Below are positions 16,724 through 55,990 of a stretch of 64,000 nt of DNA, piece after piece (the stretch's first letter is position 1; each line of letters starts with the position of its first letter). The stretch covers positions 1 to 64,000 of IMG/VR virus record IMGVR_UViG_3300032235_000647, one strand, 5' to 3'. A program made the position numbers and the translations under genes. The notes beneath the pieces are model-generated. The model saw only the letters and a list, made by a program, of their open reading frames with translations. It ran no database searches and was not told where the DNA came from. The DNA comes from a virus.

Positions 16724-16759
16724 AATATGAGGGGTTTAGGGGTTATGTTTTATATTGAA

Positions 16760-16800
16760 TACAATTATACGAAAAAAATTTTACATTTCCTAGTACTTTG
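16760..16800 (-). promoter_or_regulatory. early (host-type) promoter
   Basis: CTAG-N20-TATAATTG, variant of the repeated promoter family. Confidence 0.55.
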
Positions 16801-16811
16801 GAAAATAATTT

Positions 16812-17096
16812 TTATACTAGTTGCATTTTCTGCAACTCTCCACCAAGTCCCTCAACCACTATGGGCTTGGAGAACTTAACCTCGTGGTCTATGTACTCAT
16901 AACGAGAATACTCATTACTCTGGGCTTCCACCAAATTAATAAGAGCGAGTTTCAAATCCTCCTTGTAGGCATACATCACCAAATCGGAGTCAATCGGAAA
17001 AGAGAAATCCACTCCACCTTTGGGTTTCCAATAAGGAGTTTGGTTATCGGAATAATTCTCGTAATACTGGGCGGAAACTAAAACACTAATCATCAT
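16812..17096 (-). CDS. early hypothetical protein
   Basis: AQYYENY....PYWKPKGG motif; AACCCCT leader. Confidence 0.7.
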   Translation of the reverse strand: MMISVLVSAQYYENYSDNQTPYWKPKGGVDFSFPIDSDLVMYAYKEDLKLALINLVEAQSNEYSRYEYIDHEVKFSKPIVVEGLGGELQKMQLV

Positions 17097-17119
17097 ATCT
17101 TTTATCGTTTAGGGGTTAT

Positions 17120-17172
17120 CTGTTATTACTTTACTAATGTAAGAAAAATTATTCGTAATTCCTAGTCTTTTT
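17120..17172 (-). promoter_or_regulatory. early (host-type) promoter
   Basis: aagaCTAGgaatt-...-TACATTAG-taaaGTAATAACAG. Confidence 0.65.
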
Positions 17173-17176
17173 TTAA

Positions 17177-17440
17177 TTATTTTACACTAGTTCCAATAAA
17201 TTGGATTGTGTTTGCAATTCGTTGAAGAATGGGAGTGGGTAATTCCATTTCTTTAGCAATTTCCAACATTTCGGTGTAAAGGTAGCCATCCCACACACCA
17301 CACAACATATTGTATAGTGGGGTGAACCAAGACTCATCTCTATCTATGTGAAAATCTTCTACACTTCGAAGAGTAGTTGAGTGGTATTCCATCCAATCGT
17401 TGGTGAATAATTCGTGGCGGTCAAATCTTACAATGTTCAT
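17177..17440 (-). CDS. early hypothetical protein
   Basis: Start reassigned to MNIVRFDRHE, because the longer track ORF runs through the promoter. Confidence 0.7.
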   Translation of the reverse strand: MNIVRFDRHELFTNDWMEYHSTTLRSVEDFHIDRDESWFTPLYNMLCGVWDGYLYTEMLEIAKEMELPTPILQRIANTIQFIGTSVK

Positions 17441-17463
17441 ATTTAAAGGGTTTAGTAGTTGAA

Positions 17464-17512
17464 CTCTCATTACATAACAAACATACAAAAAAAAGTTGAG
17501 CTTTCCAAATGA
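17464..17512 (-). promoter_or_regulatory. early (host-type) promoter
   Basis: TTTG-N20-TATGTTTG followed by GTAATGAGAG. Confidence 0.75.
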
Positions 17513-17549
17513 ATGCCCAACTTTTTTCAAAAAATTTTTAATTTTTTTT

Positions 17550-18329
17550 TTATTCTCCCCAATGTTTCTGGCGAAGTTCATATACATCAATCGGTTCTCT
17601 CTTCATGTGATTACCTTGATTGAAATGGGCACCTTTTTTCAAATATCCACCCAACAGATTTCTACGGAATCGATTTGAATTATTAGGCTCTGAACCATGA
17701 ATAGTGTGGGAATGAAGTAAAACTACTTCTCCTTTACGAAGGTATCCTTCTACCTTTCGGAAATCATGTCCTTCTGGCATAATACAAGGTTTACCTCTTT
17801 CATTTCTCCAAAACTTAGGATTTGTTTTTGCTCTTTCCTCATCCACCTCAATTGGTAAAACTGGTAATCGGTGTGAACCTTCATAGTTCCAAACTGCTCC
17901 ATTTTCTGGGTCATGATTATCAAGAGCAAGTGCTGTGTTGATGATTTCATTATGAGCACATCCAGTATAGAATGCATTTTGGTGCTGGTCTCTACCCAAT
18001 TGTCCTGGTGGTTTGAAGTATGACCAAGTTTGTAGACCAACCAATTCGCCTTCCATAAGGAACTCCATTGCTTCAATAAGTTTTGGATGTACGAAAATTG
18101 ATTCTAATTTTGGTGATAATTTATGTGGATATGCAAAAGGGTCCCACTCTCCCCACTCTTCACCATTTTCCTTGGTGGTTAATGCTCTTTCTTGGCGAAG
18201 TCTTTCGAGTTCATTGTTAATTTCATCACATTGTTCCTCGGTAAGGAGTTGTAATACGGTCCAACCTCTATATCGCCAATCGAAGGTCATTTGTTGGATT
18301 TCTAAATCCGTAAGATGTTTAAATGCCAT
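17550..18329 (-). CDS. phytanoyl-CoA dioxygenase (PhyH)-family Fe(II)/2OG enzyme
   Basis: YFKPPG...HQN..Y, ALD..DPENGA, GSHR, GEVVLLHS.TIHGSEPN...RR. Confidence 0.85.
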   Translation of the reverse strand: MAFKHLTDLEIQQMTFDWRYRGWTVLQLLTEEQCDEINNELERLRQERALTTKENGEEWGEWDPFAYPHKLSPKLESIFVHPKLIEAMEFLMEGELVGLQTWSYFKPPGQLGRDQHQNAFYTGCAHNEIINTALALDNHDPENGAVWNYEGSHRLPVLPIEVDEERAKTNPKFWRNERGKPCIMPEGHDFRKVEGYLRKGEVVLLHSHTIHGSEPNNSNRFRRNLLGGYLKKGAHFNQGNHMKREPIDVYELRQKHWGE

Positions 18330-18362
18330 AACTTATTTTTTGTTGTTTTATATAAATATATA

Positions 18363-18767
18363 TTACTTGTGAAATTGTAAAAGATTCGGTAAATAAAATT
18401 TTAAATTTGGTATTTTATCACTTACCAATGATAATGCAATTCGATTTGATTCTCTGACTCCTTTATCCAATACATTACCACTAGAATCATATTGAGTTGT
18501 AATTGGTCCAGAAATTCTCCATCTTACTATTACTCCTGTATATAAAGCATTAGATAATATTTTACTATATTGAGAATAGTTAGACTCATATATTGTTGAG
18601 GATTTATCGTTTGTTTTTTGAATAAAATATCGTGTAATCCATCCTCTTTTATAATCACTTTCAGTTGGAGTTGGAAAATGAGTTTCAATATCAGAATTCA
18701 AGGTGAATAATGAGTTTATTTTTAAATTTGAATATTTTTTATTATTATCCATATTACGCCTCCCCAT
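18363..18767 (-). CDS. baseplate-region hypothetical protein
   Basis: PTPTESDYKRGWITRYF...WRISGP; position after the hub gene. Confidence 0.65.
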   Translation of the reverse strand: MGRRNMDNNKKYSNLKINSLFTLNSDIETHFPTPTESDYKRGWITRYFIQKTNDKSSTIYESNYSQYSKILSNALYTGVIVRWRISGPITTQYDSSGNVLDKGVRESNRIALSLVSDKIPNLKFYLPNLLQFHK

Positions 18768-21222
18768 CCTTTAACTTCATTTTACCACCTACACGAGTTG
18801 TCCACAATCCATTATCCAATGTATGTGAAATATCAACAACAGTAAAAGCAGCTTTACCATTAAATTGAGATGGTAAATCTGCTATTTCAAATAAATCACC
18901 TGTTTTGATACCAGACACACCATGTATTTGAAAATCGAATGTAATTTGTAGTAAGATATTATTTGGAGTTGTATCATTTTTGTAATTCAAATCCAATTTT
19001 CTAAATAAAGTTGAATCATTCCATGCACCTACTGCTATGATAGATTCTAAATTAGTAGTTGTAGTAGTTTCACCGCCAGAACCACCACCGAATCCAAAAA
19101 ATCCAGCAATAGAACTAAGTACATCACCTATTCCTTTAAAAAAGTCATCAAACAACTTTTTTGCAGCATCTCTAGGGGCATTCCTATCTTTTATAGTTGG
19201 AACTACCGTTGCATATTTCATGAAAAGTTCATAATTTTGTTTTCTAGCTTCCTTTTCAGCTTCTGCAGGATCTGTTGCTGGTGCAGGTTCATTATTGCCG
19301 GTATTACTAGATGAACCACCAGCATTTCCTCCATTCTGTGCTTCACTATCTTGTGCAATTTGACTTTTGGCAAACTTTGTTATTATTTCAACAACTGGAT
19401 CAGGTTTTTTGGCAAATAACATACCAGGGTCTATTGGTAAATTACCTTCAGGTGAAACATCCACTTGTTCAGCAGCAGTTCTCTCTGCAATAATCATATT
19501 TTTCATTGCAGCCGGTATATCAAATCCAAATTCAGATTCTATAAAAGGACAATCAACTCCACTTGAAAAAAATTTGACTATACTTTCAGATTTTGAATTT
19601 TTTCCTGAGAAGTTTAAATCAACTATTTCTAATTGATTACAATCTTTATTTTCTTGTCTACGAGATGGTAATTGTGCTATATCAAAGTGCCAAATCGAGT
19701 TTGCTGCAGATGATATACCATTTAAAAGTTCGTAATAAACATCTTTTGCAACATAATTTGATTTACTTATAACTTCAACAAAAAATTCAAAATTTATATA
19801 TAAATCTTTTAAATAACCCCATTGTCCTATTAATGCATCAAATGGAACAGTATCTACGGGAAATGCAGAAGCAGGTAGTTGTTCTAATTGTGGAAATCTA
19901 AAAAAATGACCATCTGGATCTTTTTGTTCTAGGTTAACAGCACCTTGAGGGGCTCCGTTTTCACCAAGAATAGGTCCTACTTCTTCAATCGTTGTTGCGG
20001 ATAAAGCACTAACTAATCCAAAATCAGGAGTATTCCTATTAGGGATAATTAATTTAGTACCATCAATTGAAAACATATATGGATGTGCCCTACAAATAGT
20101 ATCTCTATATTCTATAGCCAAAGGGAATGTTGGTACACCATCTCCACAAATTGAGGCAACTGATTTTGTATCATATGGTAGTCGATTGAGTATTTCAAAC
20201 GCAAGTTCGAGTCTAATATAAGAACTTTCACTAACTAAAGGAACTCCCGATGGTATTGATGCTTCAGGTGCTGCGGCACCATCTCCTCCACTATTTTGTT
20301 GAGAAGTTTGGACAGCAGTATCTTGTAATTCACCAATTAAATCCTTTCGTATTTCATCATCCATGTTGATAAAATTGGCTTCACTTATGAATGGTATTTC
20401 TCTACTATCCTTTTCGTTTATTAATTTTTTTACATCTTCATTTCTTTTTGAAGGAGGTAATCTATTGTACATTTGCATAAATAAAGCACGGCCAACATTT
20501 GATTCTGCAGTACTTTCAATTACTCTACTATCATATCGTTCACCACCTGTATTTTGCTTATCATCAAGTTTACCACCACTTCGGTGTTGTTGTAAATATG
20601 CAGCAACTTCACCTATTGAAGTTAATTCAACTTTTAAAACATAAGTTTCACCAACAGCAGTTTTAAATCCACCATTTGTGATATATCCCAAAAAACCATC
20701 ATAGGTATAACCTGAATTTTGTTGTTTACTTTTTAGATAATCATACGAATTAAACTTTGCAAAATCACACGGACTTAACGCACTTCGCTCGGCATAAGAT
20801 TGAGGTAAATTCCAACCATATTCTACTAAAACAGTATAACCAGGTTCAAGAAAATATTCAGCTACTTTTTCTGCTTGTTTTAGTGTAAAGCATTTAATTT
20901 CAAATTCAGCCTTTCGTGTTAATCCACCTTCTCCAAAATTTATACCCATAGATTGGATTACAGGCGATGGTCGGAATCCTCTATCACCTTCTACAAACAC
21001 CGAACCTCCTGCAAAATCAGTACCTACTCTTCCTGATTTTTCAGTATTACCATATCTAAGTTCGAATGAATCGTTAGGAGGAAGTGTTTCGAGTACTAAC
21101 CCACTTGAAGATGAAACTCTCATCCATGCAAGTCTTTCAGATGCTTGAACATTTCTACCTGCTCTCGATAAAATAAGTTCTTGTATTTTTGGATGAAAAT
21201 AAGAATTAAAAGGAAATAACAT
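18754..21222 (-). CDS. baseplate hub-like protein (gp27/gpD-like)
   Basis: PGYTVLVEYGW; C-terminal HGVSGIKTGDLFEI...VDISHTLDNGLWTT; synteny. Confidence 0.6.
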   Translation of the reverse strand: MLFPFNSYFHPKIQELILSRAGRNVQASERLAWMRVSSSSGLVLETLPPNDSFELRYGNTEKSGRVGTDFAGGSVFVEGDRGFRPSPVIQSMGINFGEGGLTRKAEFEIKCFTLKQAEKVAEYFLEPGYTVLVEYGWNLPQSYAERSALSPCDFAKFNSYDYLKSKQQNSGYTYDGFLGYITNGGFKTAVGETYVLKVELTSIGEVAAYLQQHRSGGKLDDKQNTGGERYDSRVIESTAESNVGRALFMQMYNRLPPSKRNEDVKKLINEKDSREIPFISEANFINMDDEIRKDLIGELQDTAVQTSQQNSGGDGAAAPEASIPSGVPLVSESSYIRLELAFEILNRLPYDTKSVASICGDGVPTFPLAIEYRDTICRAHPYMFSIDGTKLIIPNRNTPDFGLVSALSATTIEEVGPILGENGAPQGAVNLEQKDPDGHFFRFPQLEQLPASAFPVDTVPFDALIGQWGYLKDLYINFEFFVEVISKSNYVAKDVYYELLNGISSAANSIWHFDIAQLPSRRQENKDCNQLEIVDLNFSGKNSKSESIVKFFSSGVDCPFIESEFGFDIPAAMKNMIIAERTAAEQVDVSPEGNLPIDPGMLFAKKPDPVVEIITKFAKSQIAQDSEAQNGGNAGGSSSNTGNNEPAPATDPAEAEKEARKQNYELFMKYATVVPTIKDRNAPRDAAKKLFDDFFKGIGDVLSSIAGFFGFGGGSGGETTTTTNLESIIAVGAWNDSTLFRKLDLNYKNDTTPNNILLQITFDFQIHGVSGIKTGDLFEIADLPSQFNGKAAFTVVDISHTLDNGLWTTRVGGKMKLKDGEA

Positions 21223-21223
21223 A

Positions 21224-21511
21224 TTATCTGAATTTATTTACAATTTCTAAATAATTTTTTGGAACTCTCAAAATAGTGCCATCTGCTACTGCAAATGGTG
21301 CATCGTGAATATTATTTGCAGTTGCAATAATCCACCAAAGGGATTGATCCCCATAATATTGATATGCAAGCGTATCTAATCTATCACCTCCTTGGGTAAC
21401 GATGTATATATCGCTATCTCTCAATGGTATATTTGGGTATATTTTTGTTCTATATACCTCTCTACCATCTTTTAGTTTTTGTACCTGATTTCTTTCGTAT
21501 CTACTTGCCAT
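21224..21511 (-). CDS. LysM/tail-X-like baseplate protein (gp53-like)
   Basis: GDRLDTLAYQYYGDQSLWWIIATANN...GTILRVP. Confidence 0.85.
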   Translation of the reverse strand: MASRYERNQVQKLKDGREVYRTKIYPNIPLRDSDIYIVTQGGDRLDTLAYQYYGDQSLWWIIATANNIHDAPFAVADGTILRVPKNYLEIVNKFR

Positions 21512-21528
21512 AATTTAGTTTTGTTATA

Positions 21529-24138
21529 TTACCAACTACCACCAGCACCACCACCACCGAATGAACCACCTTTAAAACCACCAAATTTGGTATTAGGGTA
21601 ATCATTATAAAACGAATTTTTTGCTAAATTTACTTTTCCAGCATTTTTTGTTCCAGCAGTGTTTGAACCTCTTTTTTGTGTTTGCAATATACTCTCTTCT
21701 TGAGTTCTATCTCTACCTACATAAGGTTTAGTAATTGATTGAGTTGGTTTTGGTAATTCTTTATTAACATCAACACCATTTAGTCTAGTTGCAACTGCGT
21801 TTGCATAATTAACAATTGTTATTTGGTCAGAGTATACTGTTATGAATTGAGTATATGTAACGGATGTTGTACCAGGATGTCTACTTGGTACAATAACCAA
21901 ATGTGAATAATTAGTTTCAGATACTTTCTTTACACTATCCAAATCATAGGTTGTATCTGCCCAATATGAAAGAAGTACATCGTCATCTACAAATGGGAAT
22001 AACTTTTTAGCCTTAGTAAATCTCTCATCTATCAGAGATGCAAGTAAAGATGTTGCTCCAATACTAGTTACAGTTTCACCACTTTGTTGTTCTTGTGGAG
22101 TAGGTTCAGTTTTACCACTTTCTAAATTTTGTTGTGGTTTATTTACACCACCCTCTACAGGAGGTTGGGTATTACTAACTCCTATATTATCAACTTTAGG
22201 TGGTTGGAATTGGAGATTTTTTAGTTGTGTTGCTGCCATAATATCTGCAATTGCCTGTGCTGCTACTGCATCATTATTTACAGTTGCAGTATTAGGTGTT
22301 GTAGCAGTAGGAGTTGTAGCTGGAGAATCCGTATTTACAATTGGTTCCGTTGGAACTTGGGTTCCTCCATTTGTAATAGTCTCATTTATTACATTCACTG
22401 CCTCATCAGACATTGCAAAATTATATGGTTTAAGTTCCGAACCACGTTCTTCAATAAATTTAATGGTAATAGAAACTTCGATATATTTTGGTAATAATAA
22501 ACCATCATGTTGAGTTTCCCAGCTATTATTATCAGGTATTGCATAAGAAAGAGAATCGATATATCCATCTTTATTTACATACATATTACCTAATCTAAAA
22601 GATATGATAGGTGGTTGAGTATAATTTTTACCTTCATTTGCTGCAAAAGTTGGGTATGTTAATTGAGTTAAGAATTTTAATTTATCCCAATTTGATGCCA
22701 ATTCTAATTTATTAAAACATACAACATTTAAAGTGAATTGTACACTTCGTTCTATACTACCATATGTATAAAATTTATAAGGATTTCCAAAAAAACTATG
22801 AGAATCCCATTCAGGTGTAGTTGTTTCAGATAATGAAGTAATATAACTTCTAAAATGTACGGTTCGGTTTGATCTTCTTGATTTAAACCAAAGTGGAATT
22901 AAATCTTGTCCTTCAATTGATTTCAATTCTTCTGCTGAACGAGTTTTTACAGGAGATTGATTTACAAGGTCAAAATTACTATCTAAACCATAGGTAGTTT
23001 TCCAAGTATTTTTATATCCGGATAGTGCTCCGTAATTATTTCCCTCTGTTGGATTGTATGGAGAATATCTACCTGTTTTATTTTGTCTATCCGAGAATCC
23101 ATATTCGGTTTTACCATATCTACCATCAGTACCTGACCTATCTATACCGAAGACAGGTGATACCAGTGTTAAATCAATAATAGGAGTATTTGCTTCTCTA
23201 TAATCATTTTTATAACCACCAAGAATTTCAGAATATTTTAAATCAGGATTTGGTTTTGGATTACGAGTTTGTTCTTCAATAACCTTGTCTAATGCATCTT
23301 TATTTGTATTAGAGGTACCTTTTAATTTGTTTTTAAATTCAACTACATCTTCACCAAGTTTTCTCTTTAATTTTTCTTTTTCTAGGTTGGCTTTTATTAA
23401 AAAATCATTTGTTGCTTCTAATAATGGAGCCAAATCTTTTTGTTGCTGTTCTCTTTCTCTCGCTACACGAATTCTAGCAGAATAACTAAATTCAGATGAA
23501 TATTGATATGAACCATTTGCAGGTTTTGCAGTATTTAATCCCAACGAATAAGGGTCTCCAAATAAAAAATCTCTTACTTCATCTTTTACTAAAGATATAC
23601 CTTGTCCCAAAAGCTGTCTTCCAAGAGTTTTAGGATTACCTCCTCCAGCTTGTTTTAAAAATTTACCAAATTCAGTGCCAGCTGCATCGTTTTTTATACG
23701 AGCAATGGTAATCATTGTATCTGGTTCTATATTTCGTTGCAGTTCTCCTGTATTATTAACAAATGTTGGTATTGTAAGTTGTGGAATACCCAATCGTGAA
23801 TTTATACCATCTCTGGCTTGACTTAATGAACGAACTTGTCCTCCAAATACAAATCTACCAAACCCACCAGATGTAATTGCACCCAAACCTTGACCGATTA
23901 GTCCACCATTACCTGCTTCTCCTCCAGTTGCCTGTTTCATTAGTTCAACTGCAGAGGTAGAACGAGTGGCAATACGAATGGATTGATTTCCATATAGTAA
24001 TGGATTATTCAATTCAACTGCAGATCTAGGTCTGATACCAGTTGTTTCAAATTCAACCAAAGTATCTTTGTCAGCCTCTACTGCTGTATCAAATGTTGAA
24101 CCCCTAAATAAATCTAATATCGTTCTTCCCATTATCAA
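21529..24138 (-). CDS. baseplate/tail-tube initiator-like protein
   Basis: FRSYITSLSET..PEW....FGNP..FYTYGSIERSVQFTL...PPIISFRLGNMY; follows tape measure. Confidence 0.55.
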   Translation of the reverse strand: MIMGRTILDLFRGSTFDTAVEADKDTLVEFETTGIRPRSAVELNNPLLYGNQSIRIATRSTSAVELMKQATGGEAGNGGLIGQGLGAITSGGFGRFVFGGQVRSLSQARDGINSRLGIPQLTIPTFVNNTGELQRNIEPDTMITIARIKNDAAGTEFGKFLKQAGGGNPKTLGRQLLGQGISLVKDEVRDFLFGDPYSLGLNTAKPANGSYQYSSEFSYSARIRVAREREQQQKDLAPLLEATNDFLIKANLEKEKLKRKLGEDVVEFKNKLKGTSNTNKDALDKVIEEQTRNPKPNPDLKYSEILGGYKNDYREANTPIIDLTLVSPVFGIDRSGTDGRYGKTEYGFSDRQNKTGRYSPYNPTEGNNYGALSGYKNTWKTTYGLDSNFDLVNQSPVKTRSAEELKSIEGQDLIPLWFKSRRSNRTVHFRSYITSLSETTTPEWDSHSFFGNPYKFYTYGSIERSVQFTLNVVCFNKLELASNWDKLKFLTQLTYPTFAANEGKNYTQPPIISFRLGNMYVNKDGYIDSLSYAIPDNNSWETQHDGLLLPKYIEVSITIKFIEERGSELKPYNFAMSDEAVNVINETITNGGTQVPTEPIVNTDSPATTPTATTPNTATVNNDAVAAQAIADIMAATQLKNLQFQPPKVDNIGVSNTQPPVEGGVNKPQQNLESGKTEPTPQEQQSGETVTSIGATSLLASLIDERFTKAKKLFPFVDDDVLLSYWADTTYDLDSVKKVSETNYSHLVIVPSRHPGTTSVTYTQFITVYSDQITIVNYANAVATRLNGVDVNKELPKPTQSITKPYVGRDRTQEESILQTQKRGSNTAGTKNAGKVNLAKNSFYNDYPNTKFGGFKGGSFGGGGAGGSW

Positions 24139-26604: not shown

Positions 26605-26627
26605 TTATATTCTATATATCTCCAAAA

Positions 26628-26876: not shown

Positions 26877-26912
26877 ATTAAACTCCCATTTATACTCTAA
26901 TAAATATTAAAT

Positions 26913-28500: not shown

Positions 28501-28554
28501 TTTTTATTTTCTCCTATTATACTAATAAATATAATCTTTTTTTATTTTTTTAAA

Positions 28555-30879: not shown

Positions 30880-30957
30880 TTTATATTACTCCTTTATAAT
30901 TTCAATTATGTAATGATACGAATATAAATATTACTTACTTTTTGTAAAGAATATTTT

Positions 30958-34424: not shown

Positions 34425-36416
34425 TTAAACTAATTTTGACTTTAATTCATCAATTTGTTTTTGTTGTTCTTTAATTGCCTCGATTAATAAACCAGTCAAT
34501 TTAGCATAATCAACACCTTTGAATCCATTATCTCTATTATGAACTAATTGAGGAAGAACTTCTTCAACTTCTTGAGCAATAACCCCTACATTTGGTAAAG
34601 ATTGTTGTAATTCATCGGCATTGGAGTTCCAATCCCAAGTTACACCATTCAATTTCTGAACTTTTTGGATTGGGTTTTCAATGTTTTTGATATTATCTTT
34701 TAATCTCTTATCAGAAGAAGCGTATGCAACAACATCACCTCCCACATTCAAGGCTCCACTTACACCGACACCACCCGTTACTATAAGAGCACCAGTGGTT
34801 ATTGTAGTTGAGGCAGTTGAATTAGTGATATTAACTGCAGAGGAGAATGTTTTAGCCCCAGTAAATGTTTGAGTATCACTTAGGTGGGCGGTATCTGCAT
34901 CTAAATAAGCAGAAGCGATAACTGAACCTTGCCAAGTACCTGTCCCGATTGTTCCTAATGTAGTGATTGATGTCTGTCCAACATAAGTTGATGCAATATC
35001 AACTGCATCTGCAGATACTGAAATTCTATTAGTAGTACCAACTACATTAAAAGTTCTTGAATCGGCAATCGTACCACCACCAGTTAAACCATCACCGGCA
35101 GTTAAAGTTATTGATGTGTGGTCAATGTGTCTATTTGCTGAATATCCTGTTGTTGAATCGTGAGATATTTGTGAAGACCCAGATACTAAGGTAGTGCCCG
35201 ATGCTAAAATTGTACCAGTAATTACGGTATTAGAACCGAGTGTGATTAAAGTACCGGTATCGGTAATATTTGAATCATTTAAATGTTCTTTTCCTGACCC
35301 TTTTGGTAATCTATTGTTTGTAAGATATGTTTCGTTTCCTAAATTATCATATGTTTCAGGACCCATTAGTAATACAGATGATGTTGTATTTACTCCGTTT
35401 CCTCGATGGATAAATAATAATTCATCTTGTAAAGAATCGTATAAGAATGAACCTGACCCACCCGATGAACCACTATCTACAATTGATAATCCTGCAAATC
35501 TAGATGATGGTGAAAATGTGTTTAAAGTCACAAATGAAGAACCAATAACTAAATTTGAAGATGATATATTTTGAATAGATGAAGAACCTTGTACTACTAA
35601 ATCTTGTGAAACAAATAATGAACCTGTAATGGTTTGGCTACCATTAAATATATTTGAGGAATTCGTTCTTGCGAATGAACCACTCAATGAACCCAATGTA
35701 GACCATTTAGTATCGTTTGAGGCAGTGTATAATTCTAAATTAGCAGTTTCAACTTCTAATAAGTTCAAACGTGTAATTGCACTTCCACTTGCAGTTGATA
35801 ATTGGTCTAATCTACTATTTTGAGTAGTATTAGTTGTATCATTTGAACCAGTGTATGTATTAAGTGATGTTAATATATCTACAACTTGAGATGAACCACT
35901 AACTACTGTCTCAACATTTAATCTAGTCTTAATAGTTGTATTAATAGACGATGTAAATGTCTCTAAGTTAGCAGTTTCAACTTCTAAAAGATTTAATCTT
36001 GTAATAGCACTACCACTTGCAGTTTCTAAACTTGTTAATCTGCTATTTTGTGTTGTATTGGTTGTATCGTTTGAAGCAGTATATGTAGATAATTGATTTA
36101 ATCTTGTAATAGCACTTCCACTTGCAGTTGATAATTGGTCTAATCTACTATTTTGAGTAGTGTTAGTTGTATTATTTGAACCAGTGTATGTATTTAATGA
36201 ACTTAGAATACCAACAACTTGAGATGAACCCGAAACAATTCCAGTTCCACCAAATGTTAATCCACTACCATTACCGGTAAATGTACCACCACTAAATGAT
36301 GAACCTTGATATGATCCACTAAACGAACCACTATATATACCACCTGGTGGTAAAGTGAATGTTGCACCTGGAGCAAAAACTAATGAACCTGAAATTATTG
36401 GACTATGTATAATCAT
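34425..36416 (-). CDS. tail fibre with C-terminal peptidase S74 intramolecular chaperone
   Basis: YASSDKRLKDNI...GVIAQEVEEVLP...VDYAKL..LLIEAIKE. Confidence 0.85.
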   Translation of the reverse strand: MIIHSPIISGSLVFAPGATFTLPPGGIYSGSFSGSYQGSSFSGGTFTGNGSGLTFGGTGIVSGSSQVVGILSSLNTYTGSNNTTNTTQNSRLDQLSTASGSAITRLNQLSTYTASNDTTNTTQNSRLTSLETASGSAITRLNLLEVETANLETFTSSINTTIKTRLNVETVVSGSSQVVDILTSLNTYTGSNDTTNTTQNSRLDQLSTASGSAITRLNLLEVETANLELYTASNDTKWSTLGSLSGSFARTNSSNIFNGSQTITGSLFVSQDLVVQGSSSIQNISSSNLVIGSSFVTLNTFSPSSRFAGLSIVDSGSSGGSGSFLYDSLQDELLFIHRGNGVNTTSSVLLMGPETYDNLGNETYLTNNRLPKGSGKEHLNDSNITDTGTLITLGSNTVITGTILASGTTLVSGSSQISHDSTTGYSANRHIDHTSITLTAGDGLTGGGTIADSRTFNVVGTTNRISVSADAVDIASTYVGQTSITTLGTIGTGTWQGSVIASAYLDADTAHLSDTQTFTGAKTFSSAVNITNSTASTTITTGALIVTGGVGVSGALNVGGDVVAYASSDKRLKDNIKNIENPIQKVQKLNGVTWDWNSNADELQQSLPNVGVIAQEVEEVLPQLVHNRDNGFKGVDYAKLTGLLIEAIKEQQKQIDELKSKLV

Positions 36417-45472: not shown

Positions 45473-45519
45473 CTAATGTATTTTTACTTTTATATATATG
45501 GTTACTTATATTATATTTT

Positions 45520-48564: not shown

Positions 48565-48599
48565 AATTTTTTTTCCTATGTTTTTTTATTTTTTTTTTG

Positions 48600-48965: not shown

Positions 48966-49288
48966 ATCGAATCTATATCTCCTTCTAATTTTATATCATC
49001 AGTATTTTCTAATTCGTATTGAAAATTTGCTTTAATGAAAGATACATGAAAATCATTATTAACCTGCTCAAATATATAATCTCTTTCTAAAATATATTGA
49101 CCATTAATAAATATATCAAAACGAGAGTGTTCCTTTCTAAATGGTCTTAAATTTATGTTTAAATCTTTCATTTTTACATTTGGTAATTTCCAAATCCAAT
49201 ACGAAGGATGTGAAAGGTTATGTGGAATCAGAGTATATTCATCTGGTTCGTGAACTTGTTTTAATATTTTATTTAATTCATTTATCAT
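48962..49288 (-). CDS. small structural protein
   Basis: FDIFINGQY motif; overlaps both neighbours. Confidence 0.65.
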   Translation of the reverse strand: MINELNKILKQVHEPDEYTLIPHNLSHPSYWIWKLPNVKMKDLNINLRPFRKEHSRFDIFINGQYILERDYIFEQVNNDFHVSFIKANFQYELENTDDIKLEGDIDSI

Positions 49289-50424: not shown

Positions 50425-50981
50425 TAGTAAATTCTATCCTCTATTTGTACTTGTGATCTTCTTACCATGTGAGAAGTTGCAATTAAAAACATTCTTGCGT
50501 CTTCAAATTCGTTTGTACTCTTATTATACATTTTAGGCTGTCCACCAATTAAAGCATTTCTTCTTATATTATCTATTTCGTAATAAGTTTCATCAAATAA
50601 AATAATATCACCGATTTCAGGATATCCGTATTGTGAATTTTGAATTGCACCTACTGGAATCAGAGTTCCATTAATATCTCGTAATCTTGGAAGAGTCTCG
50701 GTCCGTAATCTCATTATATTAAATCTAAATTCGACCGATTGAGTTCTATCAGCACCAACTTCTCCATCATAACTAACATTAGGTGGTTCTCTATCTATGA
50801 TAGCCATCAAATTAGCAGGTGCATGCCAAACTTTACCTAAAGATTCACCATATAGATTAGTTTTAGTTTCACCAACTGATACTTTGAATAAAGTAATAGC
50901 TTGTTCAACTACATAATCTACAACTTCTTCGGCGATAGATTTTATAAAATTTAAATCGTTTGCATTATAAAACTTTGGCAT
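50424..50981 (-). CDS. neck/head-closure protein (gp14-like)
   Basis: NLYGES, YPEIGDIILFDETYYEI. Confidence 0.7.
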   Translation of the reverse strand: MPKFYNANDLNFIKSIAEEVVDYVVEQAITLFKVSVGETKTNLYGESLGKVWHAPANLMAIIDREPPNVSYDGEVGADRTQSVEFRFNIMRLRTETLPRLRDINGTLIPVGAIQNSQYGYPEIGDIILFDETYYEIDNIRRNALIGGQPKMYNKSTNEFEDARMFLIATSHMVRRSQVQIEDRIY

Positions 50982-50985
50982 CGTA

Positions 50986-52134
50986 TTATCCTATATAAAT
51001 TGCAAGTGGCACTTTTCCTATAATCTTTTGTTGTTGGTCAACCATTTCTGCCTCATTGGACATTCTAGTTTTTCTACTTACTTCTTCCAAGTTTTCTCTT
51101 AATTGAGTAATCAAGTTGTCCTTTTCAGTTTGAGCTTCTGCTCTTAAAGCAGCACCATCAAGGGAAACTTCTGAACCAGGAATTGGCACTGTATTATATT
51201 TCTCTCTAATAGCACCCAACATTTCTTTTGCAAGTGCAAGAGTATATTTTCTAATCCATTGTTTACCCACATCATTAATTTGTGAGTAAGTTGCAAAATT
51301 ATACTCAATATTAGAATAATCAGACATTACATTTGGTCTAACAACAGTTGAATTTTCTCTAAATTCAGTATCTACATAGTACTCAAACCATAATTGATAA
51401 TCGGAAGTTGGTATTGGGAATATTTTTAATTTATTATTTACAATATTGAATGTATGAGCCGATTTACGGAACTGGTCATTAAATTCAATTGCTTGAATTC
51501 TCAACATATCCTCATAAAGAGGCATTAATATGAATTGTGCAGCTGGTGAAAATGAGCCAAATCCAAATTCATCAATTAAGTTTAATGTACCTTGACCTGA
51601 TACTGAATAAGGGTCAAAGAATCGATTGATTGCAGGAGTTGCCTCATAAAATACTCTAGTTACTGATATTCTTTCACCACCTTCGGCTACATCAGCAAAT
51701 TCTTGTAAATCATAATCTTGTACACCCTCAGTCATATTAATAGAACCAGATTTTATACTAGTTCTACCACCTACTCCTGCTTGACTTCCGTATGCTTGCG
51801 AAATTTCAATTACATTATTTAATTCTGAGCCATTTACTTGTTTTCCAGTATAATTTACACCAGTTGGTCTACCTTGTAATGCACCAAGATTATTTCGAAT
51901 ATTGAATTGATTTACTTGGGCAGAATATTCAGAAACAGCCTCTTCAAATACTGCAAAAAAGTTTTCACCTTCTAATTCTATATCAATTATAGGATACCCA
52001 AGGCGTTTAGCACACCAAGATGCAACTTTTGGTGCTTCTGTTCTAAATTCAGAATCAGAATCATAAATACCAAAAGGGGTTGATGAACCCGTTACAAATA
52101 CAGCTGAACCTGTCCAAATTCGTGCTTGAGACAT
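50986..52134 (-). CDS. neck protein (gp13-like)
   Basis: RLGYPIIDIEL, WIRKYTLALAKEMLGAIREKY..PG..VSLDG. Confidence 0.85.
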   Translation of the reverse strand: MSQARIWTGSAVFVTGSSTPFGIYDSDSEFRTEAPKVASWCAKRLGYPIIDIELEGENFFAVFEEAVSEYSAQVNQFNIRNNLGALQGRPTGVNYTGKQVNGSELNNVIEISQAYGSQAGVGGRTSIKSGSINMTEGVQDYDLQEFADVAEGGERISVTRVFYEATPAINRFFDPYSVSGQGTLNLIDEFGFGSFSPAAQFILMPLYEDMLRIQAIEFNDQFRKSAHTFNIVNNKLKIFPIPTSDYQLWFEYYVDTEFRENSTVVRPNVMSDYSNIEYNFATYSQINDVGKQWIRKYTLALAKEMLGAIREKYNTVPIPGSEVSLDGAALRAEAQTEKDNLITQLRENLEEVSRKTRMSNEAEMVDQQQKIIGKVPLAIYIG

Positions 52135-52182
52135 ATTAGTTTTCCTATTTTATACAATTATACACCTATAAATATAAACAAC

Positions 52183-52210
52183 AAAAAAAGGGAGTGAAAA
52201 TCACTCCCTT
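52183..52210 (-). terminator. intrinsic terminator
   Basis: aagggagtga / tcactccctt stem plus U-run. Confidence 0.85.
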
Positions 52211-52238
52211 AATTAAAAACCAAGATAAAAAAATGGTA

Positions 52239-52592
52239 TTAATTTAAGTATTTTAATTTGTATAAAGTTTGATAAATTAACTTTTCTATTTCTTGTACTA
52301 TATTATCAATAAATGGGTCTTTGATTGGTCTTGCCTTTTCAATAAATTTTATGATTTTACCAAAATATTCAATTACTTGTTCTTTTGATTCGTATTGTTC
52401 GATTTTAGATACATTTTTATATTTTAGAATACCATATTTACCTTGATATGCCTCTGCAAGTTCATCGGTGATATCACCAACTGAATCATAATAAGAACCT
52501 AACGCTTTATGTTCTGCAAATGATTTCGTTTGTAGGTGAAAAATGTGAACTTGATTTACTGAATGCAGTAATACTGAAATTAAATCTTCCAT
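52239..52592 (-). CDS. ferritin/Dps-like four-helix protein (DUF5856-like)
   Basis: HIFHLQTKSFAEHKALGSYY...D.LAEAYQGKYG...YKLKYL. Confidence 0.75.
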   Translation of the reverse strand: MEDLISVLLHSVNQVHIFHLQTKSFAEHKALGSYYDSVGDITDELAEAYQGKYGILKYKNVSKIEQYESKEQVIEYFGKIIKFIEKARPIKDPFIDNIVQEIEKLIYQTLYKLKYLN

Positions 52593-52647
52593 TTAGTATA
52601 TTCCTATTAAATTTACTAATAAATATATACCAAAAAGTTTTTACGAA

Positions 52648-52911
52648 TTATTTAACCCATTCCATGTACCCGTATTCTATGGCATCTAGGTAATCTGTAA
52701 TAATTAGATTATCCCACCCACCCTTCTTATCAGCATCTATCTCTAAATGTAGGTATGAGAACTCCATTACTTCATACAATACATTATTTTCGAACGAATT
52801 ATTAACAATATAATCAAATGTTATTTGATATTCTGAAAATTCATCAACCATCTTGTGTTTAAATTCCCAAAACCACTTTTCTAAATTAGTTTGTGCAACT
52901 TCTTGTGTCAT
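52648..52911 (-). CDS. early hypothetical protein
   Basis: ORF 87 aa. Confidence 0.65.
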   Translation of the reverse strand: MTQEVAQTNLEKWFWEFKHKMVDEFSEYQITFDYIVNNSFENNVLYEVMEFSYLHLEIDADKKGGWDNLIITDYLDAIEYGYMEWVK

Positions 52912-52917
52912 TTTAGA

Positions 52918-53169
52918 TTAATTTAAATACGAATACTGATTTGCTGCTACAATTACTTTTAGATTATTATAGCATTCATTATCTGCCTTTGAAATTGCTC
53001 CGAACAAATCGTTATCTACTATCGATTGAACGAAACTACCACCTTGTAATCCTTTACCATCTCTAGTCATCATTACTGATGCAATAATTCTGATAATATG
53101 AGGATTGGTTACATCATATTGTAATGCAAATTCCTCTGCTGCTGTTTGATACTGATTTACTATGTCCAT
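52918..53169 (-). CDS. early hypothetical protein
   Basis: ORF 83 aa, GGSFVQSIVDNDL..A...AD. Confidence 0.65.
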   Translation of the reverse strand: MDIVNQYQTAAEEFALQYDVTNPHIIRIIASVMMTRDGKGLQGGSFVQSIVDNDLFGAISKADNECYNNLKVIVAANQYSYLN

Positions 53170-53182
53170 AATTTTTTATATT

Positions 53183-53467
53183 TTATTTTTTAAAAACTGA
53201 TTCTTTCCATGCTTCATTCAATTCCTCTTTACTAAATCCATGTTCTAAAAAGAAAGGGAATAGTTTGGTTTTTTTCCACTCCGTTAATTCTTTATTGTAA
53301 TTTGAATTATGTACAGTTACTTGTCCTGCTGGTGTGTAGGTGTTACCCATATTAGTACGATTCCTTCGTTTTGGTGCAGGACTGATAAGAGATGAATAAT
53401 ACATCATCGCTCTTCGTAATCCTTCTTCATTTACAACTGTCAAAACTTTGGAAACTAAATCGTTCAT
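53183..53467 (-). CDS. early hypothetical protein
   Basis: ORF 94 aa. Confidence 0.65.
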   Translation of the reverse strand: MNDLVSKVLTVVNEEGLRRAMMYYSSLISPAPKRRNRTNMGNTYTPAGQVTVHNSNYNKELTEWKKTKLFPFFLEHGFSKEELNEAWKESVFKK

Positions 53468-53480
53468 AGTATAGGGAGTT

Positions 53481-53702
53481 TTATTTCAATTTATAGGAGA
53501 ATAATGTACCACAATCATCATCATCCAAACTATCCTCCACAACGGTAATCGTATCACCAATTATGGATTGAAGTTTATTTACATCTACTCGTTTCCAATA
53601 TCCAAATCGGAGAAACATCCGAGTAGTACCAACTACATTATCTACTTTGTACTCACCGAATTCGGCTTGGATTTGTTCGTGGAGAAGGGAAGAAATATTC
53701 AT
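53481..53702 (-). CDS. early hypothetical protein
   Basis: ORF 73 aa, LRFGYW..DDDCG; AACCCCT leader. Confidence 0.65.
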   Translation of the reverse strand: MNISSLLHEQIQAEFGEYKVDNVVGTTRMFLRFGYWKRVDVNKLQSIIGDTITVVEDSLDDDDCGTLFSYKLK

Positions 53703-53730
53703 AATTTTAGAGGTTAGGGGTTTAATTTTT

Positions 53731-53778
53731 ATTACTTAACAAATATATAAAAAAGACCTGAATAATCCAAGTCTTTTC
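53731..53778 (-). promoter_or_regulatory. early (host-type) promoter
   Basis: aagaCTTGgatt-...-TATATTTG-ttaaGTAAT. Confidence 0.7.
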
Positions 53779-53788
53779 GAAAATATTT

Positions 53789-53998
53789 TTAATATTTTTT
53801 TGCTGATTCAAGGTGTAGTAGTATTGTTTTTAATCCACCTTTTAGATATCCCGCCTCAAATGCCAGTTGAGACATCAATTCAGGAGAATGTTCCTTAGAA
53901 GCAGGTTCGGCCTCAGTCAAGGTAGAGTGGATTGTAGATTCAATCGAATTAACTAATTCAATTAGTTGGGCTTTGGTGTAAGTTCGGTAATTATACAT
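53789..53998 (-). CDS. early hypothetical protein
   Basis: ORF 69 aa; AACCCCT leader. Confidence 0.65.
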   Translation of the reverse strand: MYNYRTYTKAQLIELVNSIESTIHSTLTEAEPASKEHSPELMSQLAFEAGYLKGGLKTILLHLESAKKY

Positions 53999-54018
53999 AT
54001 TGTTTAGGGGTTTAAAGG

Positions 54019-54258
54019 TTAAACATCAGCAGATGCCAACCAGAGGTCATAAATAACATTATATTCAGTAGTAGTAATTTCGGATAAGTTCCAAAATACT
54101 CGTTCTCTAATCAAACTATCACTTACTCCGATGTATTCGTACACATCTTCGTAGTTATTCAAAACCCTAACCAAACCATCAAAAGTGGCACTAGGGTTAA
54201 TTTCATTACCCAATTCATCTGTTGGGAAGTTTGCGAGGTAGTATTCTCTGATATTCAT
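54019..54258 (-). CDS. early hypothetical protein
   Basis: Start reassigned to MNIREYY; DSLIRERVF motif. Confidence 0.7.
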   Translation of the reverse strand: MNIREYYLANFPTDELGNEINPSATFDGLVRVLNNYEDVYEYIGVSDSLIRERVFWNLSEITTTEYNVIYDLWLASADV

Positions 54259-54278
54259 ATTTTTAAGTTTTAGTGTCT

Positions 54279-54330
54279 CTCTCATTACAGAACTAAAATA
54301 CAAAGAAAAGCCTAGAATTCCAAATGTTTA
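54279..54330 (-). promoter_or_regulatory. early (host-type) promoter
   Basis: TTTGgaatt-...-TATTTTAG-ttctGTAATGAGAG. Confidence 0.7.
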
Positions 54331-54354
54331 GGAAAATATTTTTAAATTATTTTT

Positions 54355-54490
54355 AAAATAAAAACCCACCACACTTGAGACCGAGAGAGAGAGAGTTAGT
54401 GTGTGGTGGGTGACCCAGGATGGATACTTTATATAGGAGAGAATGGTCTCAAAAAATAGGAGAACCTTGTATATCGCTAGAGTAGCATCT
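54355..54490 (-). ncRNA. candidate structured RNA / unusual large-loop terminator
   Basis: 11-bp stem acccaccacac/gtgtggtgggt with U-run; loop GGUCUCAA complementary to upstream UUGAGACC; (CU)n tract. Confidence 0.4.
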
Positions 54491-54702
54491 CAATCGCGAT
54501 AAGGGTTTTGTGGATGTGATTCCTTTGATGATTTTCCTATCATCATTACCAATACGAAACTGATAAGAGAACTCACCACCACTACTTCAAATGGGTGTCT
54601 TGCCCCTAACAAGACAATATCCCAGAAGAAGTAGGTGATGGGTTCAATGAAAAGGAGAAAACTAATAAATAAAACCAAGAAAACAAACATCAAATATTTC
54701 AT
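54490..54702 (-). CDS. small membrane protein (two hydrophobic segments)
   Basis: ORF 70 aa; AACCCCCT leader. Confidence 0.6.
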   Translation of the reverse strand: MKYLMFVFLVLFISFLLFIEPITYFFWDIVLLGARHPFEVVVVSSLISFVLVMMIGKSSKESHPQNPYRD

Positions 54703-54715
54703 ATCGTATAGGGGG

Positions 54716-54889
54716 TTATTTTTTTCTATTTCTTAATTGCAGTATAAGTTGGTATCCATCAAACTCGGCCTCTTTAAGAGAGAATCCATTTTGTAAGTTC
54801 ATCAATCTAGTTGATTCGTAGATTTTTCGTTCTTCAGGAGTCAATGACGCGAAGAATTCAAAGTTGGGGGAGTTGTTGTTAGTACTCAT
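54716..54889 (-). CDS. early small protein (57 aa)
   Basis: Manual: MSTNNNSPNFEFFASLTPEERKIY...; AACCCCT leader. Confidence 0.6.
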   Translation of the reverse strand: MSTNNNSPNFEFFASLTPEERKIYESTRLMNLQNGFSLKEAEFDGYQLILQLRNRKK

Positions 54890-54890
54890 G

Positions 54891-55010
54891 TTATGAGGGG
54901 TTGATTAGTTCGTATTCAGTATAGGGTTCTAGTATCCCTGATTCATTTAATCGGTTCTTGGTGATTTCTCTAACCCAGCCGAGTCCGTTGATGTAGAAGG
55001 TGTCTTTCAT
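54891..55010 (-). CDS. early small protein (39 aa)
   Basis: Manual: MKDTFYINGLGWVREIT...; first gene after promoter. Confidence 0.55.
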   Translation of the reverse strand: MKDTFYINGLGWVREITKNRLNESGILEPYTEYELINPS

Positions 55011-55013
55011 ATC

Positions 55014-55070
55014 TTTATCTCTTATTACAATACTAATGTACGAAACTTTGCCGAGTATTCCAAATGTTTT
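55014..55070 (-). promoter_or_regulatory. early (host-type) promoter
   Basis: TTTGgaat-...-TACATTAG-tattGTAATAAGAGATAAA. Confidence 0.7.
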
Positions 55071-55086
55071 AGGAATTATTTTTAGA

Positions 55087-55236
55087 TTATTTACTTTCTT
55101 TTATTTTATCAATGAACTTTCTCATCGCTTCATGTATTCTTTGGACAGGGTACGGACCTTGTTCTGTCTCATCCCATAGTTGCCAGTCTTCATACGTGAT
55201 ATAATAAAATTCTTCAAGTTGCTCTATAATATTCAT
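55087..55236 (-). CDS. early small protein (49 aa)
   Basis: Manual: MNIIEQLEEFYYITYEDWQLWD... Confidence 0.55.
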   Translation of the reverse strand: MNIIEQLEEFYYITYEDWQLWDETEQGPYPVQRIHEAMRKFIDKIKESK

Positions 55237-55239
55237 ATC

Positions 55240-55404
55240 TTATCCTTTTAAACTTATTGTTAAATCAAACTGCTTTTGAATAAAATAATCTAACTTGTGA
55301 TGGATATGGTCTATTTCTCTAATATCGCCACTCTTTACGGCATCCATTAATTTATAAGTCCAATATTCAATTTTACTCATATAACCATTTTCGTAAGTCT
55401 TCAT
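55240..55404 (-). CDS. early small protein (54 aa)
   Basis: Manual: MKTYENGYMSKIEYWTYKL...KLDYFIQKQ. Confidence 0.6.
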   Translation of the reverse strand: MKTYENGYMSKIEYWTYKLMDAVKSGDIREIDHIHHKLDYFIQKQFDLTISLKG

Positions 55405-55405
55405 A

Positions 55406-55555
55406 TTAATTCAATCCTAGTGTCCAAACTCCTTCTTCCATTTGATTGACGAAGTGTCTTCTCGTCATTACTCTTTCTACTCCATTAGGGAATAGAACCA
55501 AGACCATAGAGTGGCCGTTGTAGAGCCAGTGTCGGGTGATGTGTGGTTGTGTCAT
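55406..55555 (-). CDS. early small protein (49 aa)
   Basis: Manual: MTQPHITRHWLYNGHSMVLV...; AACCCCT leader. Confidence 0.55.
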   Translation of the reverse strand: MTQPHITRHWLYNGHSMVLVLFPNGVERVMTRRHFVNQMEEGVWTLGLN

Positions 55556-55567
55556 ATCTTTTAGGGG

Positions 55568-55624
55568 TTATCTCTTATTACTTTATAAATGTAGTAAAAA
55601 AACCTGAATAATCCTAGTCTTTTA
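55568..55624 (-). promoter_or_regulatory. early (host-type) promoter
   Basis: aagaCTAGgatt-...-TACATTTA-taaaGTAATAAGAGATAA. Confidence 0.65.
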
Positions 55625-55635
55625 CCAAATATTTT

Positions 55636-55914
55636 TTAATCTACTGGATAAAATTTTACACTCAATATTACTTCGGCCGGCTTGGTTGCCAATACTGTCT
55701 CCACATACTTATTAGCCCGTTCTCTTGCACCAAAGTGTCCAAACTCCATTACATCAAAAAATTTCAGATTTACTTTGTACAATTTTTTAGGAAATCTACC
55801 ATCACCATAGTATACTCTGGTCTCTATCTTCTCTCGTTTTACATTAGGAAGTTTCATTAGAGAAGTGATTTTATTAGAGGAAGCAGATACGGAGAAGAAA
55901 TCAAAATCGTTCAT
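55636..55914 (-). CDS. early hypothetical protein
   Basis: ORF 92 aa. Confidence 0.7.
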   Translation of the reverse strand: MNDFDFFSVSASSNKITSLMKLPNVKREKIETRVYYGDGRFPKKLYKVNLKFFDVMEFGHFGARERANKYVETVLATKPAEVILSVKFYPVD

Positions 55915-55932
55915 ATTAGTAAGGGTTTAAGG

Positions 55933-55990
55933 TTTATCTCTTATTACAATACTAATATAGGTAAAAAAACCCGTAATTCCAAGTCTTTTT
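55933..55990 (-). promoter_or_regulatory. early (host-type) promoter
   Basis: aagaCTTGgaatt-...-TATATTAG-tattGTAATAAGAGATAAA. Confidence 0.7.

Follow-up and report, generated by a model that had tools for sequence, protein, structure and literature searches.

Introduction

The ribosomes of Bacteroidota largely ignore Shine-Dalgarno (SD) sequences, and how they choose their mRNAs is only partly understood; we know of no account of how the phages of these bacteria time translation. Here, we describe a seven-base motif, AACCCCT (AACCCCU in the RNA), which stands just upstream of the start codons of small genes in IMG/VR virus record IMGVR_UViG_3300032235_000647, a single 130,194-bp viral contig whose first 64 kb (positions 1 to 64,000; GC 32%) form the stretch analyzed here, hereafter the window. 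The closest described arrangement is that of the PeSL (promoter-early stem-loop) cassettes of the T4-type phages RB49 and phi1, presented by Arbiol et al. 2010 (PMC2839356) as repeats of ~80-100 bp that precede small genes of unknown function in the variable regions of T4-like genomes. Each unit carries a host-type early promoter, often with an overlapping terminator hairpin, and ends with a translation signal and a start codon, and the positions of the units vary among relatives. In T4 itself, RegB and RegA target early mRNAs in their initiation regions, where RegB sites (GGAG) and RegA operators, short motifs of early rather than late messages, mark a class post-transcriptionally (PMC3014915). 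In Flavobacterium johnsoniae, the initiation regions characterized by Baez et al. 2019 (PMC6847099) are SD-less, G-poor and unstructured, with A-rich (Kozak-like) surroundings; adenines at -12 and -13 promote initiation there, and UCCC placed at -14 to -11 cut a GFP reporter by 90%.

The hairpin apart, which is clear in only 3-4 of the 8 cassettes here, the locus studied shares the above features of the PeSLs as they are described. Its predicted promoters, however, are of the Bacteroidota -33/-7 type instead of sigma-70, the leader GTAATAAGAGAT is conserved as well, and AACCCCU stands where a PeSL carries its SD. With an SD, which stands ~5-9 nt before the start codon, the motif has in common a position 4-7 nucleotides (nt) upstream of the AUG, a single-stranded state and occurrence at first as well as internal genes, whereas it is pyrimidine-rich and resembles the tail of 16S ribosomal RNA (rRNA) instead of complementing it. 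The likeness to the RegA and RegB sites, judged here from sequence, lies in a short initiation-region motif of early and not late genes; the sequences are unrelated, however, and no homologue of either regulator was found among the 114 proteins scanned. These leaders resemble the F. johnsoniae regions in lacking an SD and structure, in their low G content and in their A-rich surroundings, but at about -9 to -13, where adenines are positive determinants in that report, they have a C-run instead, and the A-tract at -11 to -14 is missing. Nor did we find an accessible 16S complement of the kind that defines rRNA-complementary enhancers such as T7 epsilon, taking Flavobacterium 16S in place of that of the true host. 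A literature search at the level of abstracts, which does not prove absence, returned no published description of the motif.

A motif tied to the start codons of small genes

The AACCCCT element is real, conserved and tied to start sites, and is peculiar to a single phage lineage. Nearly all genes of the contig lie on the minus strand, and on this coding strand the exact motif occurs eight times in the whole contig (as AGGGGTT on the plus strand at 16730, 16738, 17111, 52075, 53716, 54006, 54896 and 55563), always within 16.7-17.1 kb or 52.1-55.6 kb. Seven of the eight copies, at distances of 6-14 nt, end within the 3-16 nt before an ATG, against 0.11 expected (binomial p = 7.8e-13 for the 129 ATG gene starts of the contig), with the proviso that the copies are not fully independent, several of them belonging to one repeated type of cassette; for the core CCCCT, the same holds for 8 of 22 copies. 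The sole exact coding-strand copy away from an ATG, 52075, lies inside gene 50986-52134. On the opposite strand, AGGGGTT is found at 24099 and 34581, both times within genes, and the total of 10 on both strands is not enriched (shuffle mean 7.02; 10 is reached in 15 of 100 shuffles).

The motif had been pointed out in an earlier note made from the sequence alone, which placed it at SD distance upstream of minus-strand ATGs, and the seven start-proximal copies bear this out. That note did not list 52075; seven of the sites it gave carry the exact motif, and the eighth, 54710, is an inexact copy because it has five Cs. All of its variants are present in the sequence (AACCCTT at 17446 and 55921, AACTCCCT at 53473), and AACCTCT (53709-53715) and AACCTTT (54014-54020) can be added to them. 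It did not mention the larger promoter-leader cassette that the motif closes, the two of eight cassettes in which it is absent, or its restriction to one lineage. The enrichment over background that it proposed as a check is seen for the position before starts and not for the raw count. Its statement that the motif is confined to genes of early islands agrees with the eight copies in two islands, but 'early' is judged from the type of promoter, and the contig is ~65% complete (CheckV), so 'confined' is valid only for the part present.

Several leaders carry the motif in tandem (16730/16738, 53709/53716, 54006/54014 and 55921/55929), the copy nearest the ATG ending 5-7 nt upstream of it, and in the five window leaders with a start-adjacent CCCC, C occupies -8 to -13 from the AUG. 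Folding gives the leaders little structure (0 to -7.5 kcal/mol), with the C-run unpaired in 10 of 10 minimum-energy folds. Rho-loading (rut) regions are C-rich, G-poor and unstructured over ~70 nt; between the predicted transcription start (see below) and +36 of the gene, G amounts to 6-22% and C to 17-31%. Rho loading would not explain the fixed distance from motif to AUG. Two candidates were rejected: a structured RNA element, because the leaders are unstructured, and an integron-like core site, the sequence of which does not fit.

Four copies stand where no promoter fits, namely at 53473 (in a 13-nt gap), 54006 (in a 20-nt gap), 54710 (over a stop codon) and 54896 (at the end of an open reading frame, ORF). 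For gene 53789-53998, a homologue in a relative has the full promoter and leader, of which this phage keeps only the C-run part. The family of the 92-amino-acid (aa) gene (55636-55914) was found at 38 loci in viral contigs, with protein identity of 72-85%, in 18 distinct upstream contexts that include a promoter of its own, three unrelated upstream genes and truncated leaders; although the flanks differ, CCCCT is present in 17 of the 18, and in 16 it lies 4-6 nt before the ATG. Thus, the motif is kept before the same gene with or without a promoter, which would place its action at the start site on the mRNA. Across the contig and its relatives, 33 distinct leaders read CCCCT, 4-7 nt, ATG and an ORF, two of which (L020 and L021) may be chance; the spacer measures 4 nt in 2 leaders, 5 in 14, 6 in 10 and 7 in 7, and the flanks are A/T-rich and variable.

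In related sequences from public runs, the substitutions 53711 A>G and 55922 A>G turn weak copies into canonical ones, the former making the nearer copy of the 53709 tandem AACCCCT, and four Cs are kept at 54711. A relative with 90% identity has CCCCT at the position of the variant at 17446-17452. The contigs that match the 21-base leader plus motif exactly are relatives (DNA identity 65-90%) that have the small genes elsewhere in the genome; in one of them (L001), the homologues of the genes at 55.4-55.9 kb adjoin the tail sheath gene, and one upstream gene end is joined at the motif to two different downstream genes (L257 versus L002). The genes that bear the motif gave no match to a Pfam or PHROG family. 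For the 92-aa protein, the AlphaFold model was too poor for a search (pLDDT 58), and a protein atlas and a profile search of the PDB gave nothing above chance. Searches for further small-gene families yielded six loci for one and none for another, and one homologue for the 110-aa gene.

Predicted promoter-leader cassettes in viral contigs

Eight repeated cassettes (P1-P8) precede small genes, and all share the order T(T/A)GG, a spacer of exactly 19 nt and TAnnTT(T/A)(G/A), followed by the conserved leader GTAATAAGAGAT; AACCCCU is the last element, then come 4-7 nt and the AUG. The C-run or a variant of it is present in six of the eight, the other two being P3, with an 18-nt leader, and P8, with an A-rich leader. 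The Bacteroidota promoter consensus is TTTG at -33 and TAnnTTTG at -7 (PMC6847099), which the cassettes match, so that we regard them as carrying predicted promoters. Since the last base of the -7 element is placed at -5 in the same source, transcription would start at the G of GTAATAAGAGAT, and the predicted P4 RNA reads 5'-GUAAUAAGAGAUAACCCCUAAAAGAU-AUG. In P1, P2, P4 and P5, the first copy of the motif begins 13-14 nt after this start. P2, P5 and P7 have their -33 element inside a hairpin that a T-run follows, as does P4 with a weaker hairpin; those of P1, P3, P6 and P8 are weak (-1.1 to -3.8 kcal/mol). Two cassettes (gene starts 17440 and 54258) read GTAATGAGAG, which puts an AUG 4 nt after the predicted transcription start; it shares its frame with a second AUG ~30 nt further on, the likely true one. 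For these genes, the starts given by the longest ORFs, 17587 and 54285, are probably wrong. The 39-codon ORF 54891-55010 (minus strand) came to light at a cut-off of 38 aa, below that of the 40-aa gene lists, and is kept in L001. The features are listed in Table 1.

Table 1. Motif copies and promoter-leader cassettes in the window
Feature	Position	Strand	Details
Tandem AACCCCT-A-AACCCCT	16730..16744	-	Leader of gene 16391-16723; nearer copy ends 6 nt before ATG 16723
Cassette P6	16757..16792	-	-33 TAGG 16789-16792, 19-nt spacer, -7 TATAATTG 16762-16769; predicted start ~16757
AACCCCT	17111..17117	-	Leader of gene 16812-17096; 14 nt before ATG
Cassette P1	17129..17164	-	-33 TAGG, 19-nt spacer, -7 TACATTAG; predicted start G 17129 (GTAATAACAGAT)
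Variant AACCCTT	17446..17452	-	5 nt before ATG 17440, the probable real start codon of the gene that ends at 17177
Cassette P7	17473..17529	-	Strong hairpin (-17.9 kcal/mol) and T-run, including -33 TTGG 17505-17508; -7 TATGTTTG 17478-17485; predicted start G 17473
Variant AACTCCCT	53473..53480	-	13-nt gap between genes 53481-53702 and 53183-53467, too short for a promoter; 5 nt before ATG
Tandem AACCCCT (53716-53722) and AACCTCT (53709-53715)	53709..53722	-	Leader of gene 53481-53702
Cassette P2	53735..53791	-	Hairpin (-12.5 kcal/mol) and T-run, including -33 TTGG; -7 TATATTTG, perfect consensus; predicted start G 53735
AACCTTT-A-AACCCCT	54006..54020	-	Fills 20-nt gap after upstream stop; ends 7 nt before ATG 53998; promoterless
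Cassette P8	54288..54323	-	Promoter and A-rich leader, no C-run; likely start codon 54258
AACCCCCT (plus strand AGGGGGTT), five Cs	54710..54717	-	Overlaps stop of gene 54716-54889; 7 nt before ATG 54702
AACCCCT	54896..54902	-	Within last codons of 39-codon ORF 54891-55010; 6 nt before ATG 54889
Cassette P3	55028..55063	-	Promoter, 18-nt leader GTAATAAGAGATAAAGAT, no C-run; drives the 39-codon ORF (predicted)
AACCCCT	55563..55569	-	26-nt leader of gene 55406-55555; 7 nt before ATG
Cassette P4	55581..55637	-	Weak hairpin (-5.7 kcal/mol) and T-run, -33 TAGG, -7 TACATTTA; predicted start G 55581
Variants AACCTT (55929-55934)-A-AACCCTT (55921-55927)	55921..55934	-	Leader of 92-aa gene 55636-55914
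Cassette P5	55947..56003	-	Hairpin (-9.1 kcal/mol) and T-run, including -33 TTGG; -7 TATATTAG; predicted start G 55947

A pattern of the -7 element plus GTAATAAGAGATAA, in which the Cs are not included, was found in viral contigs in 62 distinct contexts, 48 of which have the promoter architecture. These 48 come from many contigs, some of them 230-290 kb long (loci L150-L234), and only 8 carry CCCC; the others are A-rich from there onward or have the AUG after 18-19 nt. Among the contexts lacking CCCC is that of a homologue of gene 55406-55555, with a leader that reads AACCAUAAACGAU. In bacterial genomes, the same C-free pattern gave 119 matches, with the promoter architecture in only 1; the pattern extended by CCCC gave no match there, and the exact 21-base leader plus motif was found in 18 viral contigs and 0 bacterial genomes. 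The broad viral spread of the C-free pattern and the presence of CCCC in 8 of 48 contexts therefore suggest that promoter and leader are a widespread phage device, of which the C-run is the variant of one lineage. GTAATAAGAGATAA itself corresponds to the first 14 bases that would be transcribed (window 55581-55568; also in P1, P3 and P5) and recurs, together with the -33/-7 promoter, in these 48 contexts from very different phages. The cultured Flavobacterium phage immuto lacks the GTAATAAGAGAT leader, a search of it returning one match with one mismatch, equal to the control, and comparison of cultured phages with the 52-58 kb region (megablast) and with one cassette (blastn) returned nothing useful.

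Comparison with host rRNA and genomes

AGGGGUU was found in none of the 16S rRNAs of four Flavobacteriia (two Flavobacterium species, Myroides and Polaribacter), where AGGGGU is restricted to helices of the 5' domain; the 16S of one Bacteroidaceae genome has AGGGGUU once, at the same 5'-domain site. In Flavobacterium, Myroides and Polaribacter, the 16S tail reads ...GGAACACCUCCUUUCU, with which the pyrimidine-rich motif cannot pair. The best duplex of motif and 16S (-12.2 kcal/mol) forms at about position 1412 near the 3' end, presumably in helix 44, and is equalled by 2 of 60 shuffled cores. With Flavobacterium as proxy, the complementarity to host 16S that the earlier note proposed to test is thus not borne out, and the likeness that it saw to the anti-SD, which in the 16S of Flavobacterium reads ACCUCCU, stands as a resemblance only.

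Nor is the arrangement enriched in the bacterial genomes examined. ACCCCT followed within 4-8 nt by ATG occurs 8-34 times per genome in 5 Flavobacterium genomes, against 20-80 for the reversed control, and motif plus ATG shows no clear excess in 201 Bacteroidota genomes, a crude count made without gene calls and not on the true host. The C-run at -8 to -13 covers the region of the UCCC-sensitive positions and of the positive adenines (about -9 to -13) of F. johnsoniae. The lack of a 16S complement, the lack of enrichment in genomes and the loss of translation caused by UCCC therefore argue against a generic enhancer, and favor a factor of the phage lineage or a peculiarity of the host ribosome.

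Late genes and genome context

A TATATTTATA-like motif precedes structural genes, often just after a hairpin and T-run (28510-28550, 30890-30950, 52600-52640 and 58705-58760), and looks like a late promoter by analogy with TATAAATA of T4. The earlier note had not seen AACCCCT ahead of structural genes, and indeed 0 of 28 genes behind such late-type motifs have a start region with CCCC. GGAG, GAGG or AGGA at -4 to -18 precedes 14 of these 28 genes and 0 of the 7 genes with CCCC start regions. We also note that half of the late-type genes bear an SD and that the phage encodes its own bS21, although its promoters point to a Bacteroidota host.

The contig derives from a distant T4-type myovirus; it encodes a tail sheath, a tube protein like gp19, a portal and a terminase like those of T4, and gp25. 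The capsid protein shares 53-55% identity with its counterparts in Flavobacterium phage immuto (53.5%) and Microcystis phage Mel-JY01, and the promoters of this T4-like lineage point, at the level of sequence, to a host in the Bacteroidota. The bS21 gene is at 61751-61999 on the minus strand (Pfam Ribosomal_S21, E = 1.4e-12); a pattern scan found no close bacterial relative of its product, so the host could not be identified in this way. An HNH endonuclease is encoded at 57486-58019 (minus strand) in the window and a SegE-like GIY-YIG endonuclease at 112955-113413 (minus strand) of the contig; both might drive local exchange of genes. At 54345-54489 (minus strand), directly upstream of cassette P8, ~200 nt free of ORFs contain a CT-rich tract (CTCTCTCTCTC) and a GGTGGG/CCCACC inverted repeat with a T-run after it. 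Outside the window, 82-100 kb of the contig hold a large sugar-modifying cluster with epimerases, a dTDP-sugar isomerase, radical SAM enzymes, glycosyltransferases, a methyltransferase and a sulfotransferase.

Discussion

Because the motif is strand-specific, lies at SD distance, is absent from late genes and is conserved without a promoter, an element of translation initiation is the class with the best support. Of the two roles offered in the earlier note, an initiation enhancer and a binding site for a regulator, either may apply, with a plain enhancer disfavored. Our tentative preference, by analogy and short of even confidence, is that a trans-acting factor peculiar to the lineage of this phage recognizes AACCCCU as an operator. 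Transcription by the host RNA polymerase would begin at the G of GTAATAAGAGAT, bringing the C-run to +15 to +18 of the RNA and -8 to -13 from the AUG; at internal genes, the motif lies in a short intergenic gap or over the stop codon of the upstream gene. AACCCCU would thus form a single-stranded element in the initiation regions of small early genes of unknown function, where the factor, an RNA-binding protein or a nuclease, would bind at the ribosome docking site and set or shut off translation of the gene set as a class, much as RegA and RegB do on T4 early mRNAs. What the sequences show is where the motif lies, its strand, spacing and conservation, its unpaired state and its absence from late genes and from starts with an SD; the early timing, the site where transcription begins, an effect exerted on the RNA and the factor itself are inferred. 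The specificity of the motif to one lineage, with CCCC in only 8 of the 48 contexts that combine promoter and GTAATAAGAGATAA, speaks for the proposal, as do its position and spacing before starts, its persistence in relatives and without a promoter, the public-run variants, the unpaired C-run, its absence from SD-bearing and late-type genes, the UCCC result and the T4 precedent. Several points weigh on the other side. No match to RegA, RegB or another RNA-binding Pfam family was found among the 61 + 53 = 114 proteins scanned, although the contig is incomplete and the factor could therefore lie in the missing part. A free repressor could bind anywhere in the docking site, and the tight spacing of 4-7 nt therefore fits recognition on the ribosome better. 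The copies are related by descent and cassette exchange, so their counts overstate independence, and the F. johnsoniae result with UCCC may not transfer to the true host. Finally, the relatives in two metatranscriptome runs are low-depth contigs, silent on RNA ends, cleavage, strand and level of expression.

The same spacing, seen in 33 distinct leaders, is among the reasons to consider direct reading of the motif by the host ribosome, in place of an SD or as a tuner, with the C-run docking on the 30S platform and positioning the AUG. We rate this only slightly below the trans-acting factor; the docking site would be bS1 or the bS21/bS18/bS6 pocket, which in Bacteroidota accommodates the anti-SD tail. 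In its favor, the motif is unpaired throughout, never accompanies an SD, is kept at transcript-internal genes and resembles the Flavobacterium 16S tail ACACCUCCUUUCU, to which that pocket binds as described in PMC7797042. However, the Flavobacterium 16S has no AGGGGUU and its best duplex is no better than some shuffled cores, neither the Flavobacterium nor the 201 Bacteroidota genomes show an excess, UCCC lowered translation of the F. johnsoniae reporter by 90%, and sister phages with the same promoter have A-rich leaders. A more elaborate form, in which AACCCCU mimics the anti-SD, fills the bS21/bS18/bS6 pocket and serves as a docking signal for non-SD ribosomes, holding early phage mRNAs at the distance of an SD, while late mRNAs rely on SD and phage bS21, giving a two-code switch during infection, appears quite improbable. 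It is unlikely, if less so, that the motif travels with mobile gene cassettes as their passenger or linker, maintained through copying and exchange of shared ends with no part in expression. The relocation of the small genes in relatives, for instance to the side of the tail sheath gene in L001, and the two downstream partners of one gene end (L257 and L002) are what such shuffling would produce, and PeSLs are described as mediating it, with a GGGG...CCCC element proposed as a recombination target (PMC2839356). Yet CCCCT and its 4-7-nt distance to the ATG have persisted while flanks and spacers diverged freely, substitutions seen in public runs bring weak copies back to the consensus, the motif keeps to one strand and to the ATG, and seven bases are few for homologous exchange.

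Action on DNA, either as the operator of a transcription regulator or as an initially transcribed region that affects promoter escape, is very unlikely. The first copy in P1, P2, P4 and P5 does lie at a common place for operators, 13-14 nt past the predicted start, but the promoterless copies (53473, 54006, 54710 and 54896) are conserved, two of the eight promoters lack the motif, and the functional-looking copies all lie on the same strand and keep their distance to the ATG, not to the transcription start. We give least credence to the motif as the target of an antisense RNA or another mRNA bearing AGGGGUU. A perfect 10-base complement, TAGGGGTTAT, occurs twice in late genes (window 34584-34593 and contig 72851-72860), with a third site, TTTAGGGGTT, at 24104-24113, where ~0.1 would be expected by a rough estimate from base composition. 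The sites belong to a tail fiber gene (34593), a large gene of unknown function (24113) and the terminase gene (72860); all three thus lie inside coding regions, the one at 34593 encoding V-G-V-I-A-Q-E of the tail fiber gene, and they probably arise from coding sequence. A non-coding G-rich candidate was not found in the incomplete contig, nor was an Rfam match, and Rfam and tRNA scans returned nothing. What probability remains goes to something else.

Whatever reads it, the element offers a compact handle on mRNA choice in Bacteroidota and on the timing of phage translation: a motif of seven bases, a fixed distance to the AUG and one class of messages, in a genome that also has SD-bearing late genes and its own bS21. 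If the motif is read by a factor, the system would be the counterpart, in a very distant T4 relative, of control by RegA and RegB; if it is read by the ribosome, initiation would have a signal of a new kind. With these cassettes, in turn, the concept of mobile regulatory units known from the PeSLs reaches phages whose promoters are of the Bacteroidota type.

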